NCBI GenBank assembly: GCA_964631275.1
Contig: CAZVWQ010000004.1
Span: 11,788 to 75,787 of the forward strand
Direction: 5' to 3'
DNA length: 64,000 nt
Origin: an uncultured Candidatus Saccharibacteria bacterium
Lineage (GTDB): Bacteria > Patescibacteriota > JACMRA01
The notes beneath the pieces are model-generated. The model was not told the DNA's origin and did not search any database. It saw only the letters and a program-made list of their open reading frames with translations. Below are positions 3,892 to 42,716 of the stretch, piece after piece (positions within the stretch are counted from its first letter, which is position 1; each line of letters starts with the position of its first letter). A program made the translations under genes and the position numbers.

Positions 3892-5151
3892 GTGCCAACT
3901 AAAAGCTTTGAATATTTAGATAAAGAAGTGGTCTATCTAGATCATGCTTGCCAGAGCCTTAGACCTTCTAGTGTTATCGAAGCTGAATTAAAATACTACA
4001 CTAATTATAACTCTTGTGCTGGCAGGGGAAATAATTATTTTGTAGAAGAGGTAGACAAAGTCATCCAAAGTTGCCGTAAAGAAATACTTAGATTTGTAGG
4101 AAAAAATAGTGAACAATACTCTGTTGTTTTTTGTCCTAATACTACTTATGGCATTAATTTAATTTTGACTAACCTTAACTGGGGAAGTTATAGCCAGATC
4201 TTAACCACCAGCAAGGAACACAACTCTGTTTTTTTACCAGCTATCTCATATGCTAAAAAATTCCAAAAAAAATTAAATATTCTTAAAAGACAAAATAACG
4301 AGCTTGATATTTTTAGCTTAACTAATTTTAATAATACTGTAGCTATTTTTAATACTACTTCAAATATCGACGGTAGTGGACTTAAAAATCTTGATATAGT
4401 TATTAACAGTTTAAAGAAAAATAATAACTTAGTACTTTTAGATGCTACTCAAACTTTAGCTCATCACCAACTTAACCTAATTGATGTTGACTTTGATTGT
4501 ATATTTGCCTCTGGACATAAGCTCTATGCCCCATCTATTGGCTTTATGATCATTAAGAAATCTTTAATAAAAAACTTAGATCAATTTTGGGTAGGAGGTG
4601 GTACTGTTCAGAGGGTGGCTCCAGATAGTTACGAATTAATTAATTACGAGGGGGATATAGGTTCTAGGCTAGAGTTTGGTTTGCAGGATTATGCTGCAAT
4701 TTATGGCTTAGAACAAGCTCTCAAATGGCTAAGAAATTACAGAATAAAAAACGAATATCCTAAGTTAGATTATGACTCTAATTTAGCTAGAAGTTTGAGT
4801 GAAAGAATTATGGGTTTTGGGCCCAGTACTGAAGCAATTTATTATATTGATAATCTATCGGAAGTTTTATTTGAAAACATGGAAATGCTTGTTAATGCTG
4901 GTAAATTAAAATTATTAAATAAAGAATCTTCCTCAATAATTTCTTTTATTCCAGTTAATATCGATAGTTATAGTCTCAACTCTAAATTATCAGATTTTGG
5001 GATCATGTGTAGAAGTGGATATATGTGCGCTCATAACTATATTAGAGAAGAATTAAGGCTGCCTCCAATAATCCGAGCTTCCTTAGGTTTGCATAACACA
5101 CCCAGAGATATTATGCTATTTCTTAATAGGCTAGTAGATCTACTGTCCTAA
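3892..5151 (+). CDS. class V aminotransferase / cysteine desulfurase-like PLP enzyme
   Basis: 419 aa with GTG start. YLDHACQS near the N-terminus and the SGHKLYAP motif (PLP lysine) are typical of SufS/CsdA/NifS-type enzymes. Starts 7 nt after the ABC ATPase stop. Confidence 0.7.
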   Translation: MPTKSFEYLDKEVVYLDHACQSLRPSSVIEAELKYYTNYNSCAGRGNNYFVEEVDKVIQSCRKEILRFVGKNSEQYSVVFCPNTTYGINLILTNLNWGSYSQILTTSKEHNSVFLPAISYAKKFQKKLNILKRQNNELDIFSLTNFNNTVAIFNTTSNIDGSGLKNLDIVINSLKKNNNLVLLDATQTLAHHQLNLIDVDFDCIFASGHKLYAPSIGFMIIKKSLIKNLDQFWVGGGTVQRVAPDSYELINYEGDIGSRLEFGLQDYAAIYGLEQALKWLRNYRIKNEYPKLDYDSNLARSLSERIMGFGPSTEAIYYIDNLSEVLFENMEMLVNAGKLKLLNKESSSIISFIPVNIDSYSLNSKLSDFGIMCRSGYMCAHNYIREELRLPPIIRASLGLHNTPRDIMLFLNRLVDLLS

Positions 5152-5179
5152 TATAGTAAATTCCTATACAAACTAGACA

Positions 5180-5271
5180 ATAATCACATCTTAAAACTTA
5201 TTTTTACTGCTGATTAATATCGATTTATGGGGTTATAAGTTTTGTAAATTTGAGTTATAGGACAAGACTAA
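5180..5271 (-). repeat. B-family MITE-like repeat (about 90 bp)
   Basis: ataatcacatcttaaaac...tttgtaaatttgagttataggacaagactaa. Family TIR is TTAGTCTTGTCCCATAAC vs ATAATCATGTCTCAAAAC (about 13/18). Confidence 0.8.
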
Positions 5272-5282
5272 TAAATCCTTTA

Positions 5283-5337
5283 TCTAAGTTAAATTATTAA
5301 CGGGTAATTACGGTAACGATTAGCGGCAAGGGTATAA
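5283..5337 (-). repeat. C-family repeat, right half only
   Basis: ttaacgggtaattacggtaacgattagcggcaagggtataa matches the ends of full copies at 17750, 21142, 42788 and 46770. Overlaps the last codons and stop of ORF 5320..6549. Confidence 0.75.
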
Positions 5338-6549
5338 GCATTTTTTGACTCTACGGTTAGCCTCTTCTTTTGGTAATATAGCTAAAAGTTCGAATGGACT
5401 TGGGGATTTTTTTTTGCCTGAGAGAGCTATTCTAAGTGGCCATAAATAATCTCCAGCTGATTTGTTATTATCTTTTAACCATATTTTGATTTTGGATTCC
5501 CAGTTTTTAGTAATTCCTTCAAAGATTTCGGGCAAATTAATATTAGTCGAATTAATTTCTGAACCTTGATTAGCAGAAACCAGCTTTCGAGTAATTTTTA
5601 GTAAATACTTTTCGGCTAACTGGTCTTCTTTGTTATACAAATTTAAAATTACATTTTCCCAAATTTCTTGTAGATTTTGCTTGCTTTCAGTTAAGGTGTT
5701 TTTTTTCCATTTAAGGTCGTCATCAATGGGTCTCTGCCATTTAGTAATACATTCTGAATCAGTACCTAATTCACTTAAGGTTGCAATTCTATTTTTATCA
5801 AGCAACAAAGAAAGATAAAAAAGTAAAATTGACTCAGTTGGTTCGAACAAATCTAAATCATTTTGCAAACAAAAGTTTTTCCAGATTGGATAAGTTAAAT
5901 ACTCGTTAGTTTCAATAACTTCTGGCAATGGATGCCAATCAAAATTCCAATTTTTATTTTTTTCTTGCAAAACAAAAGGTGCCACCTCTTCTTCAGATAA
6001 TTCGTAGTAATACATATGCATTTCCTTACCATCAAACTGCTGGTTATCGATAATAAAAGGTTGTTTAGATAAAAGTCTAAATGTAGCGATTTTTTTGATT
6101 TTGTTTTTATCAAGACTTATTTTTTTAGGAATTTCTTCAGAAACTTCTCTAAGCAAACATTCTAATAAATTTTCATTTTTGTTCTTACCTCCACCAACGT
6201 AATAAAATTCACCATCTTGACCTGCCAAAGTTTTTTCTTTATTAGCTAGAACTTTTTGTTTTTTTGGATCGGCAATCATCAAGTAGCCACCTATTCTAAA
6301 GTTTAAATCTCGATAATTTAACTCTTTTTGCTTGGCTTGCACTTTGGACCAGTTAAGTAATTTATACTGACTAGCCCTTAAAGCAAACTCTGAAAGACTA
6401 ATTAGCCTTAGGTATTCTTTATTGAACCACTCTAATTTTTGCCTACTAAATCTAGCTGGGGATTTGGATAATTTAGTTAGATCAAAATCTTGAGTAATAT
6501 TATTAAGCAGAGTATTGATTCTAGCTTGGATTTTGGTTTGCAAGTTCAT
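5320..6549 (-). CDS. gltX: GluRS C-terminal (anticodon-binding) region with an embedded Nudix-box domain; no catalytic domain
   Basis: FDLTKLSKSPARFSRQKLEWFNKEYLR and DYLWPLRIALSGKKKSPSPFELLAILPKEEANRRV match the GluRS region after the Rossmann fold. Between them, GGKNKNENLLECLLREVSEEI fits the Nudix box Gx5Ex7REUxEE. No HIGH or KMSKS region is present. Confidence 0.6.
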   Translation of the reverse strand: MNLQTKIQARINTLLNNITQDFDLTKLSKSPARFSRQKLEWFNKEYLRLISLSEFALRASQYKLLNWSKVQAKQKELNYRDLNFRIGGYLMIADPKKQKVLANKEKTLAGQDGEFYYVGGGKNKNENLLECLLREVSEEIPKKISLDKNKIKKIATFRLLSKQPFIIDNQQFDGKEMHMYYYELSEEEVAPFVLQEKNKNWNFDWHPLPEVIETNEYLTYPIWKNFCLQNDLDLFEPTESILLFYLSLLLDKNRIATLSELGTDSECITKWQRPIDDDLKWKKNTLTESKQNLQEIWENVILNLYNKEDQLAEKYLLKITRKLVSANQGSEINSTNINLPEIFEGITKNWESKIKIWLKDNNKSAGDYLWPLRIALSGKKKSPSPFELLAILPKEEANRRVKKCLYPCR

Positions 6550-6611
6550 TTGAGTTTTGGCTTGTTAGTTTAACTTAGTTAATCAAAATTAATTTTTGTC
6601 TACTTTTTTCT

Positions 6612-6660
6612 TATACCCAATCCCTTACCATTAACCTAAATTTAGCTCTGCATAAGGGAA
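6612..6660 (-). repeat. C-family repeat, left half only, abutting an A-family copy
   Basis: tatacccaatcccttaccattaacctaaatttagctctgcataagggaa, followed directly by the A copy at 6661. Confidence 0.7.
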
Positions 6661-6770
6661 TATACTAAACTGTTAGTTACTCAGTGAGTTTTTCTGATTG
6701 TTTTTTTTAATGAAACTAAAACCTTCAGTTAAATTCCTTCAGTTAAATTATAATTGCTATGAAATTGATA
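6661..6770 (+). repeat. A-family repeat with internal duplication and degenerate 3' end
   Basis: tatactaaactgttagttactcagtgag...aaaaccttcagttaaattccttcagttaaatt (ccttcagttaaatt occurs twice). Confidence 0.7.
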
Positions 6771-6839
6771 TTTTTCTTATATACAAGAGATAAATTGATT
6801 TACTTTTTTAATTATAAGGTAAGATTAATATTATACTCC

Positions 6840-6959
6840 ATACAAGCCAAATTTCAGTTTTTCTTGAAGTTTAAATCTCCATTTTAGCTAGACTTAATTA
6901 GCATCAAAAAGTATTTTAAAAATTAAAAAAGCCCTAGTTTGAATTGGTTTGAGTATAAA
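6840..6959 (+). repeat. F-family dispersed repeat (about 120-145 bp)
   Basis: caagccaaatttcagtttttcttgaagtttaaat...catcaaaaagtattttaaaaattaaaaaagccctagtttgaattggtttgagtataaa. Confidence 0.7.
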
Positions 6960-7122
6960 TTACTGTATTACTCAGACTTAAAACTACCTTCAAACAAGCA
7001 TTTTTTTGCTAGTGCAAAGGTATTAAGAGTATTTTTTTGCCTAAAAAACTATTTTAAAAGGTTTTAAAAAAACTAATTTTGCCTACAAAGCTTTTTAGGA
7101 ATATCTAAAATGTAGATTAAAT

Positions 7123-8253
7123 TTAAAGTCTGTGATCTCTTTTGTCAAAAAACTTGTCAGGAATTATTTTATAGGGGTCATATTTGGTCTGCATTGGCGA
7201 GTCGATGTTTATATAACTAATTTCAGGAAAAATTTGACCATACTGAGTAATTAAAGAAGTACTCATAGAACCTTTGTTTTCAGCTTCTAAGATTATCGAC
7301 CCAAGGTCTAAATTTTTAATTTCTGAAATTATCTTATGAATATGGTACAGGCCGCCAATCCTAGAAAAACCAAATACGATACCATCAACAATTTTATTTT
7401 CGATTAGCCTTTGGATATCGGTATAATTTGAAGCTACCTCTTTAGCATAAATTCTAACTGAACTAAATTCTTTGATGGTTTTAAGATCAGAAAGCTGTTT
7501 TGGATCTGTAGGCTGAATCAAGATTGGCACTTCAAGGATTTTCATAGCTTCAACCATTTTTAAAGAATCTGCTAAGGAATAACCACCATTAGCTTCTACA
7601 GCCACTACCTGAGATTGACCTGCTTCTTGGACTACTTTTTTTAGTCTAAGAATGTCTTTTTGCACGTCTCTTCCAGCTTTTATTCGGAATTTGTTAAAAC
7701 CTAATTTTTTTGCTTGAGGGACGATCTTTTGAATATCAAAAAGGCCACAAATTGGAATTGTATAAAAACTCTTTTTTAGATTAAAATCAACATTTCTATA
7801 GTTTTTGTAAGGACTTTGCTTTAGCCAGTTACCTAACTTACCTGCCAAGCTAGTACTAAATTTTTCAGGTTTATATAATTTGTATAAATATTGCTGCAAA
7901 GTTAGATTTTCTTTTTTGGCTAACAGATCATGGACAGCCATATCCAAGCCAGCTAAAACATTTTTAGAAATTTTATTTCTGATTTTTATAGTTTCAATAA
8001 AATCCTGAACTGAGCTAAATTCAGTGATGGTAGAAAATTTTTCAAAAAAAGCCTGGAGTTCAGCTTCTACTCCTGCTTGATTTTTGAATAAAGGATAATC
8101 CAAAGAAATTAGTCCATATCCAATTACATTAGCCTCTTGAACTTGAATCTCAATATTTTCTATTTTATGAGATCTATATTGGCTAGTGATCATACTAAAC
8201 TGCCTAGGTATACCAACTCTTTCCCAGAGAATATTGTCTACTACAAAAGACAT
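7123..8253 (-). CDS. enolase-superfamily (MR/MLE, dipeptide-epimerase/OSBS-like) protein
   Basis: 376 aa. FRIKAGRDVQKDILRLKKV...VAVEANGGYSL...VPILIQPT follows the KxK / xDxNxxw / xEQP layout of the barrel domain, but apparently with E and Q at two metal-ligand positions. Confidence 0.45.
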   Translation of the reverse strand: MSFVVDNILWERVGIPRQFSMITSQYRSHKIENIEIQVQEANVIGYGLISLDYPLFKNQAGVEAELQAFFEKFSTITEFSSVQDFIETIKIRNKISKNVLAGLDMAVHDLLAKKENLTLQQYLYKLYKPEKFSTSLAGKLGNWLKQSPYKNYRNVDFNLKKSFYTIPICGLFDIQKIVPQAKKLGFNKFRIKAGRDVQKDILRLKKVVQEAGQSQVVAVEANGGYSLADSLKMVEAMKILEVPILIQPTDPKQLSDLKTIKEFSSVRIYAKEVASNYTDIQRLIENKIVDGIVFGFSRIGGLYHIHKIISEIKNLDLGSIILEAENKGSMSTSLITQYGQIFPEISYINIDSPMQTKYDPYKIIPDKFFDKRDHRL

Positions 8254-8579: not shown

Positions 8580-9374
8580 TCAAGCAATTAAAAAATCTAA
8601 CTTTGATTCTTGCTCTAATTTTTCTGTTTGTCTATCACTTAGGTCTGATTGTTTTTGGTTAATTACTTCTTGACTTGCGTTTTGCAAAAAGCTAGAATTT
8701 TGTAATTGTTTTTTTAAAGAATTAATTTGCTTGTCTAGATTTTGAATATTTTTGTTAGTTCTGGCTATTTCTTTTTTTTTGTCTGGAACATATCGCAAAA
8801 TATCAATGTAGAACTCATAACCAGCTGAAACGATTTTGAAGAGGGTAGGATAACTACCTTTGCTAGTCTTACATTTGGCTGAAAGTCTAAGAAATTGAGA
8901 GTATTTAAGTAGTTCTTCGTTTTCAGTAAAGATCTCCATAATAGTAGCTGGGTCGATCCCAAATAAACCTCGTAAGGAGCGTACTTTGATTATACTTTCA
9001 GTAATTTTGGCAAACTCTTCCCAGCCTTGAGTTTGTGATTGAGAATAACTAAACTCTGGTTTTAGGTGCAAAGCTAGAAGATCTTCTTCAGTAAAGAATT
9101 CTTTCCATAAAGCTTCAGTCTCAAATGGAGCATAAGGCGAAAGAACAATTACAAATTGTTTAAACAACTCTTTAGCAAAATCAACCTGAGAATTGTCTGT
9201 TTTGAGGTATTCTACGTACCAATCAGCATAATAATCCCAAACAAAGCGATATAGGCTATCAATATTGTGAGCTATTTCGTAAGTTTCTAAATTAGCTTGC
9301 AAACTATTTTCTAATTCAAAATATTTTTTTAGTATCCATCTAGAAGCAGGGGTTAGAGTTGTTTGTTCATCCAT
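8580..9374 (-). CDS. valS: ValRS C-terminal fragment (anticodon-binding domain plus coiled coil) only
   Basis: ASRWILKKYFELENSLQANLETYEIAHNIDSLYRFVWDYYADWYVEYLK matches the ValRS DRWIL...F.WN.FCDWY.E region. The C-terminal heptad-rich tail matches the ValRS coiled coil. The frame closes 6 codons upstream of the ATG. Confidence 0.7.
   Translation of the reverse strand: MDEQTTLTPASRWILKKYFELENSLQANLETYEIAHNIDSLYRFVWDYYADWYVEYLKTDNSQVDFAKELFKQFVIVLSPYAPFETEALWKEFFTEEDLLALHLKPEFSYSQSQTQGWEEFAKITESIIKVRSLRGLFGIDPATIMEIFTENEELLKYSQFLRLSAKCKTSKGSYPTLFKIVSAGYEFYIDILRYVPDKKKEIARTNKNIQNLDKQINSLKKQLQNSSFLQNASQEVINQKQSDLSDRQTEKLEQESKLDFLIA

Positions 9375-41891: not shown

Positions 41892-42716
<825 letters not shown>

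Follow-up and report, generated by a model that had tools for sequence, protein, structure and literature searches.

Split aminoacyl-tRNA synthetases are exemplified by the AlaRS of Nanoarchaeum and by the PylSn/PylSc pair. YadB, a free-standing GluRS-type catalytic domain, occurs alongside a complete GluRS and has tRNAAsp as the target of its modification. The closest precedent for the arrangement described here is the alpha-beta LeuRS of Aquifex aeolicus, which is specified by two genes and forms a heterodimer (Xu et al. 2002, cited in PMC2377443). The subject of the present analysis is an open reading frame (ORF) at 5320..6549 on the minus strand of the window, i.e., the whole stretch of 64,000 nucleotides (nt) taken from contig CAZVWQ010000004.1 of an uncultured Candidatus Saccharibacteria bacterium. 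This ORF very likely encodes the anticodon-binding subunit of a GluRS whose two parts are specified by unlinked genes; the polypeptide encoded in the window is referred to as the C-half and its catalytic counterpart as the N-half. A domain of the Nudix type is embedded in the C-half.

The ORF comprises 409 amino acids (aa) plus a stop codon (translation table 11) in a window with a G+C content of ~30%. The original prediction, made without database searches, had described it as a C-terminal half of GluRS, a description borne out by a match to Pfam Anticodon_2 (PF19269) at aa 349-404 (E 2.9e-14, 54.1 bits, cut-off 23.6) and by the NCBIfam gltX profile TIGR00464, positions 285-327 of which correspond to aa 16-58 and positions 285-465 of which are covered by the C-half overall. 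Pfam NUDIX (PF00293) matches at aa 92-211 (E 5.7e-6, 26.8 bits, gathering cut-off 21.1), so that both domains proposed at that time for a hidden Markov model search score above their Pfam cut-offs. The gene and its parts can be listed as follows.

5320..6549, minus strand: probable C-terminal subunit gene of a trans-split GluRS (ORF, Pfam, gltX profile, ~35 stand-alone and ~20 fused orthologues)
6313..6549, minus strand: aa 1-79, linker helix, remainder of the stem-contact region and first helix of the anticodon region (aligned to fused forms)
5872..6312, minus strand: aa 80-226, inserted Nudix domain (Pfam NUDIX, Foldseek, VIA, PDB profile 2pqv)
6124..6192, minus strand: aa 120-142, Nudix box GGKNKNENLLECLLREVSEEIPK (residue conservation across Nudix-bearing homologues)
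5323..5871, minus strand: aa 227-409, anticodon-binding helical domains that include an additional insertion specific to the lineage (Anticodon_2; VIA alignment to GluRS 8jpv_A)

The first of these segments, aa 1-79, holds a lineage-specific linker helix (aa 3-21) and the stem-contact motif FDLxKLSKSPARF...KLEWFNKEY, and presumably forms the docking surface for the N-half, while the anticodon-binding part ends with the motif LWPLRxALSGKxKSPSPFELL. An alternative genetic code hiding a longer gene was also considered, because ORF 8580..9374 nearby resembled a shortened ValRS; it was ruled out, as table 25 (TGA read as Gly) yields no upstream extension of either the 409-aa ORF or the ValRS-like ORF.

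The genome to which the window belongs (G000) is a metagenome-assembled genome (MAG) of 1.48 Mb in 53 contigs and is 86% complete. On a different contig it contains a 336-aa ORF, G000:C2:32641-33651(-), which corresponds to gltX positions 2-286, carries a Rossmann catalytic domain with the HIGH (HLGT) and KMSKS (KLSKR) signatures (PF00749, 214 bits), is 67% identical to a fused GluRS homologue and reads '...GWNPGTDKEVYLENTEI' up to its stop codon. This N-half represents the single match to PF00749, the class Ic catalytic domain, in the whole genome. Neither a full-length gltX nor GlnRS was found in the assembled 86%, and GatB is present. Neither half alone passes the TIGR00464 equivalog cut-off of 289.95 bits (N-half, 272.2 bits; C-half, 50.5 bits), and jointly they cover gltX positions 2-465 of 470. 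The sole catalytic domain, the complementarity of the halves, the lack of GlnRS, and the presence of GatB therefore indicate that the two genes constitute the only GluRS, and a non-discriminating one. A genome-wide search for gltX, suggested earlier, has thus returned a separate catalytic half and no full-length copy. As the two genes reside on different long contigs, both internal (with over 17 kb to the nearest contig end in each case) and with unrelated flanks, they are unlinked.

The two polypeptides meet within a single contiguous ancestral sequence. The N-half ends with '...YLENTEI' before its stop, the C-half begins 'MNLQTKIQARINTLL...', and fused forms read '...YLEKEDFLNLTQNQRLEKLISNL...'; the first residue of the C-half is the next residue of the ancestral protein after the end of the N-half, and ancestral residues are neither lost nor duplicated at the junction. 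A split intein was rejected on the grounds that the pieces abut the ancestral sequence without extra junction sequence. In the order at large, all N-halves stop 0-10 residues past 'GWNPGTxKExYL' and all C-halves have their initiating methionine 14-25 residues ahead of 'DFxLxKLSKSPARF'. The break always falls within the same lineage-specific linker, inside the stem-contact fold region and not between autonomous domains; in the model of the fused homologue P0008 it maps to a short connector after '...YLESEDF', just ahead of the lineage-specific helix 323-337.

The GTDB order comprises 27 genomes, of which 26 have a GluRS match and one (G005) has none. GluRS is encoded in separate pieces in 12 of the 26, G000 included, and in 11 of these 12 a single complete N-half and a single C-half are encoded on separate contigs. 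The N-half frames of the split genomes measure 320-358 aa, with the exception of G010, in which only contig-end fragments are found (186- and 179-aa frames). The catalytic domain never occurs in a second copy in any genome of the order, and the split genomes have no additional full-length gltX; this sole-GluRS status suggests that Glu-tRNA formation is carried out by the split enzyme. In the remaining genomes GluRS is fused, the copy of G004 being interrupted by frame breaks. C-halves with the Nudix domain (~355-417 aa) are encoded by G000, G010-G014, G017, G018, G026, and G022, those without it (218-219 aa) by G007 and G008, and Nudix presence differs even within one genus, g15 (548 vs 731 aa). 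Split and fused states thus coexist within one family. In G022 the C-half is cut again right behind '...LDKNRVTKLDEVG', so that GluRS consists of three pieces, each on a contig of its own, with 322 aa in the N-half, 241 aa in a middle piece that has lost the Nudix box, and 169 aa in the piece bearing the anticodon domain (L102:1069-1794, L103:1115-1624, L113). This MAG also has a separate Nudix gene of the same subfamily on its contig C2; it is 72% complete with 4% contamination and calls for caution.

Among 5.8 billion protein clusters searched, 89 relatives of the C-half were found, in which every combination of fused or split and with or without Nudix is represented: stand-alone C-halves with Nudix (~35 proteins, 371-443 aa), fused GluRS with the same Nudix domain at the same site (~700-716 aa), fused GluRS without it (~522-591 aa), and stand-alone C-halves without it (P0056 and P0070, ~250 aa). 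The stand-alone orthologues are 35-51% identical to the C-half and derive from independent assemblies. The named records are MAGs of Patescibacteria, i.e., the candidate phyla radiation (CPR), labelled Peregrinibacteria, Gracilibacteria/SR1 or Paceibacterota, mostly from glacier-fed streams and lakes. Two long contigs from other lineages, of 107 and 147 kb, carry a C-half gene that has no catalytic half within 10 kb of it. Compared with canonical GluRS, the proteins of this group feature three additions: a helix-bearing linker of ~25 residues between '...GWNPGTxKExYLExxDF' and 'DFxLxKLSKSPARF', which contains the break; the ~145-aa Nudix domain past the first helix following KLxWFNxEY; and a further helical insertion within the anticodon-binding domain. 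P0103 (571 aa; catalytic domain and Nudix, no anticodon domain) was not counted as a third architecture, because its tail looks frameshifted and its contig is only 2.4 kb long.

These data bear on two of the options left by the original prediction. The option that the ORF is one half of a split GluRS is strongly supported by the matching catalytic half on another contig, by the lack of a full-length gltX, by the occurrence of the arrangement in 11 related genomes, and by fused orthologues with the same Nudix domain. The other option, a pseudogene remnant, is contradicted by the conservation of the same architecture in related genomes. A decaying fragment of a former full-length gltX, or an artefact of its assembly, would fit a MAG of 53 contigs, an ORF whose 3′ end is overlapped by a repeat, and the frameshifted copies that exist in public data (P0103 tail, G004). 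However, the 409-aa frame is intact and has ~35 stand-alone orthologues from independent assemblies, the key GluRS motifs are all conserved, each half lies well inside a long contig and their flanks are unrelated, and the genome holds no other GluRS, which leaves this explanation very little room. Two observations nevertheless count against a functional two-gene GluRS: a full-length gltX could sit in the missing part of the genome, and no clear candidate for a Shine-Dalgarno sequence or a promoter is seen upstream of the C-half gene. A scan for promoters and terminators returned fewer promoter-like sites than shuffled sequence and no terminator, and was uninformative.

The evolutionary history was addressed with trees built from the GluRS core only, i.e., with insert and junction columns removed. 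The tree of 87 proteins requires at least 8 changes between split and fused states and at least 9 changes of Nudix presence; the tree of 28 concatenated genomes requires at least 5 and at least 7, respectively. P0045 and P0070 group together (support 100), both split, one with and one without Nudix; P0051 and P0075/76 group together (support 99), all fused, again with and without Nudix; and the split G000 is sister to the fused G001 (support 96). The backbone is weakly supported, and a tree in which all split forms are monophyletic is not rejected by the approximately unbiased (AU) test (delta lnL 19.6, p 0.178). For these two reasons recurrent fission is not claimed: although the maximum-likelihood trees need at least 5-8 changes, the AU test permits a single origin.

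How the two polypeptides might work together is suggested by their structure models. The C-half model reaches a mean predicted local distance difference test score (pLDDT) of 88.9 and a predicted TM-score (pTM) of 0.85, and its residues ~1-40 score 55-72 when the C-half is modelled in isolation. The model of the fused homologue P0008 reaches a pLDDT of 93.5 and a pTM of 0.90, and the residues equivalent to the start of the C-half score 86-96. The junction segment is confident only in the fused model, which we read as the N-terminus of the C-half packing on the catalytic body. The top VIA-align match of the C-half model is GluRS 8jpv_A (Z 12.5), in which model residues 28-407 align to chain residues 271-444 with the insert skipped. 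In the assembly proposed here, the N- and C-polypeptides would associate non-covalently into a heterodimer, in which residues ~1-45 of the C-half would lie against the catalytic body, and the rebuilt enzyme would be a non-discriminating GluRS charging both tRNAGlu and tRNAGln (GatCAB present, GlnRS absent). On this reading of the models, the two halves would have to associate in the manner of a fragment-complementation pair.

Alternatively, the C-half alone might be a tRNA-binding Nudix enzyme, acting for instance on tRNA or RNA ends, with the N-half aminoacylating on its own and no obligate heterodimer. The genes are unlinked and their neighbourhood is not conserved, the top Foldseek matches of the Nudix domain are the RNA-acting RppH and Dcp2, and a GluRS catalytic domain by itself remains weakly active in vitro, all of which would suit such an arrangement. 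It is nonetheless quite improbable, considering that the break lies inside the stem-contact fold region, that the first ~45 residues of the C-half are of low confidence alone and become confident only when fused, and that N- and C-halves co-occur one-to-one. Moreover, Nudix-less C-halves of ~220-250 aa (P0056, P0070, G007, G008) are separate genes too, and the split is therefore independent of the Nudix domain.

The Nudix domain of ~145 aa occupies the loop that connects helices one and two of the anticodon-binding region. As noted in the original prediction, its box is near-canonical and lacks the final glycine: aa 120-142 fit Gx5Ex7REUxEE (GX5EX7REUXEEXGU) at all positions except the last G, which is a proline in this protein and a glycine in most homologues. 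The insert models as a complete alpha/beta/alpha Nudix fold. Ranking next after GluRS in VIA-align, complete Nudix folds align to model residues 80-232 (Z 10-11; ~125 of ~130 residues, rmsd ~3 Å), and the Foldseek matches, namely RppH, Dcp2, GDP-mannose hydrolase (GDPMH), and Ap4A hydrolase, have E values of ~1e-5 and TM-scores, relative to the target, of 0.5-0.65. Among PDB profiles, 2pqv matches at 3e-6. The structural check of the Nudix fold envisaged at the outset therefore came out in its favour, and of the findings that had been named as fatal to the prediction none was encountered: a full-length gltX was not found, orthologues exist, and the Nudix match holds in profile and structure searches alike.

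Conservation was assessed in the 53 homologues that bear the Nudix domain. Their mean pairwise identity is 33% in the Nudix domain vs 48% in the GluRS core. Against this background, R134 is retained in 46 of the 53 proteins (with lysine in 6 more), E135 and E138 in 51 each, E139 in 50, and the glycines G119-G121 in 50-52; R85, Y89, D94, G174, K175, and W205 are nearly fixed too. The metal-binding glutamates of the REx2EE motif are thus under strong purifying selection. Pairwise identities of core and Nudix correlate weakly (Spearman 0.27), and strict joint inheritance of insert and host is therefore not demonstrated beyond the shared insertion site.

The subfamily to which this Nudix domain belongs is small. 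An exhaustive profile search of 1.84 billion representatives gave 36 matches at E<=1e-10, which consist of GluRS C-halves, fused GluRS, and ~10 free-standing proteins of 144-201 aa with an intact box. Free-standing members of the subfamily include L104:1051-1524 (G019; 157 aa), P0097, P0101, P0104, and P0107. Within the order, free-standing copies are found only where the embedded Nudix is absent (G019, G007) or box-less (G022), and never beside an intact embedded copy; as the numbers are small and the genomes related, this pattern is only suggestive. Two lineages hold a decayed, box-less remnant in the same loop, namely the middle piece of G022 and the fused GluRS of G016 (L122; ~680 aa), in which a remnant of ~115 aa follows the KLxWFN helix and both GGG and REx2EE are gone. 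The insert of G016 is a Nudix domain decayed in situ. We read this pattern as a single insertion of the Nudix domain into a permissive loop with several later losses or decays; the Nudix of GluRS is old and vertically retained across the order, and not a recent mobile cassette. Four further Nudix genes are present in the genome of the window.

From the conserved REx2EE motif and the free-standing members of the subfamily, the embedded domain is judged to be probably a catalytically active, autonomous hydrolase. It would act as an Mg2+-dependent nucleoside-polyphosphate pyrophosphohydrolase (of the nucleoside triphosphate (NTP), NpnN or RNA 5′-end type) that rides on GluRS and takes no part in the aminoacylation mechanism. 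Three observations detract from this assignment. The final glycine of the box is replaced by proline; relatives have lost the domain several times, by deletion or by decay, and it is therefore dispensable for GluRS function; and no NCBIfam equivalog for a Nudix enzyme matches, the nearest ones being scattered over NudI, NudG, MutT, RppH, and YtkD. No substrate was assigned, since the nearest sequence neighbours are NTP pyrophosphohydrolases (NudI, NudG, MutT) as well as RNA pyrophosphohydrolases (RppH, YtkD), and the NCBIfam and PDB profile matches are only scattered and weak.

An inert structural or tRNA-contact module, which would leave the split GluRS unchanged, is the less likely alternative, though one to be taken seriously: in addition to the altered glycine and a modest Pfam score of 26.8 bits, the box-less remnants kept in place in the G022 middle piece and in G016 illustrate that the scaffold can persist without catalysis. 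In contrast, the arginine, the three glutamates, and the GGG are kept in ~95% of the 53 homologues at 33% identity, free-standing relatives share the same box, and the conserved R85, Y89, D94, K175, and W205 suggest a ligand pocket. Preferring an active hydrolase, one may speculate that its activity is coupled to tRNA charging, in that it would sense or destroy a nucleotide signal (NpnN, alarmone-like, NAD-type caps) or process the end of a bound RNA or tRNA; we consider this doubtful. If it holds, the GluRS of this lineage would be a bifunctional regulatory hub. Equally speculatively, the same-linker break in many genera would amount to a repeated, selectable fission of an essential enzyme. 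As a separate observation, P0107 (336 aa) combines its Nudix domain with a C-terminal region showing a weak, sub-threshold match to HD_4 (a RelA/SpoT-type HD domain), which offers a lead to a nucleotide-signal substrate.

The surroundings of the C-half gene are rich in repeats, and two features adjoin it directly.

6550..7122, no strand: non-coding spacer of 573 nt, upstream of the gene (blastn against the genome)
5152..5337, no strand: dispersed repeat downstream, overlapping the 3′ end of the gene (more than 100 genomic copies, with ends clustering at 5336-5338)

The absence of a catalytic domain upstream of the ORF and the repetitive nature of 6550-7122, both claimed beforehand, hold up: the spacer is non-coding, and its units at ~6604-6662, 6660-6734, and 6830-6960 occur in 54, 94, and 75 copies genome-wide (blastn, E<1e-5), outside long ORFs, only short repeats being visible within the spacer itself. 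An RNA element was rejected for the spacer, in which no Rfam family matches; the sole Rfam matches of the window are two tRNAs elsewhere. On the other side, the last six codons (CLYPCR) and the stop of the C-half (5320-5337) are supplied by the end of the downstream repeat, and since more than 100 copies end at 5336-5338, this repeat has replaced the native 3′ end of the gene. Six or more families of short repeats (59-131 nt) are present in 38-156 copies each in the 1.48 Mb, and they are confined to intergenic DNA: ORFs of at least 120 aa cover no more than 1% of any copy, vs 68% of the genome. Six repeat units fill the flanks of both GluRS halves, including window 5180-5337, G000:C2:32470-32570, and G000:C2:33785-33915. 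As markers of the split junction the repeats were rejected: they flank both halves and yet are present genome-wide, and their occurrence at the junction flanks is therefore no evidence that they caused the split. Nor can the unit shared by the 3′ flank of the N-half and the 5′ flank of the C-half pair the two transcripts, as it has the same sense in both. The repeat load is unusual for a CPR-type genome, and a role as promoter, terminator or mobile element is conceivable. The neighbours of the C-half gene are an enolase-superfamily (MR_MLE_C) protein at 7123-8253 (-) and a class-V aminotransferase (cysteine desulfurase-like) at 3892-5151 (+); this neighbourhood is not conserved in other lineages.

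GluRS is not the only enzyme of this genome that is encoded in pieces. ValRS is represented by the window ORF 8580-9374 (-), which precedes the C-half gene by 2 kb in the same orientation, with 264 aa covering valS positions 594-860 (Anticodon_1 and the tRNA-binding arm), and by a second piece at G000:C33:3711-6215, an 840-aa frame covering positions 109-615. The NAD-dependent DNA ligase LigA is distributed over three unlinked genes with profile positions 12-215, 207-520, and 517-648, located at window 41967-42707 (+) (G000:C4:53754-54494), G000:C1:31193-32134, and G000:C9:20700-21095. With GluRS, ValRS, and LigA affected, fission is a habit of this genome. In another lineage, a 252-aa gene encoding only the LigA adenylation domain (L015:11168-11926) directly adjoins the GluRS C-half.

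Split synthetases are rare natural experiments on the modularity of ancient enzymes. Within one order, GluRS comes as a fused protein, in two pieces or in three, and the inserted enzyme domain may be present or absent; with such a series, natural sequences suffice to test fragment complementation, the docking of subunits, and what fission costs. If the Nudix domain is active, it would provide a new example of essential translation enzymes carrying accessory catalytic domains in the ultra-small genomes of the CPR. In practical terms, halves of this kind are routinely mis-annotated as truncated genes or pseudogenes and lower the apparent completeness of genomes.

With canonical non-discriminating GluRS (TIGR00464; 8jpv, 3pnv, 2cfo, 3al0) the enzyme described here shares the catalytic and stem-contact motifs, the Anticodon_2 domain, and the role of sole GluRS alongside GatCAB. 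The canonical enzyme, however, is one polypeptide of ~470-510 aa, whereas two unlinked genes, a linker helix, a Nudix domain, and a helical insertion are found here. GluQRS/YadB resembles the N-half in being a GluRS catalytic domain without an anticodon-binding domain. In the present case, by contrast, the genome has no further GluRS, the domain lacking from the N-half is encoded at another locus, and the N-half is 67% identical to the fused GluRS of relatives; membership in the GluQRS/YadB group was rejected, as only one class Ic catalytic domain exists here and in each relative. Free-standing Nudix hydrolases of the MutT/NudI/RppH type (2pqv, 3grn, 6vck) have the complete fold and the Nudix box in common with the insert, which differs in being embedded in-frame in a synthetase loop and in belonging to a small subfamily without a characterised member. 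ValRS and LigA of the same genome are likewise essential multidomain enzymes cut into unlinked genes, although the enzymes differ. In the literature searched, which left most subscription journals outside, neither a split GluRS nor a Nudix domain within any synthetase was found. The A. aeolicus LeuRS is likewise a class I synthetase encoded by two genes, with one piece mostly catalytic and the other comprising the tRNA-binding C-terminal part (PMC2377443). It differs in the identity of the enzyme, in the position of the break, and in having no foreign enzyme domain inserted. Its occurrence is known from a single thermophile, whereas close relatives within a Patescibacteria order alternate here between split and fused forms. 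The A. aeolicus enzyme forms a heterodimer, as the GluRS halves are proposed to do. The heterodimeric class I synthetase is thus a kind already known, to which the present case adds the insertion of an enzyme domain.

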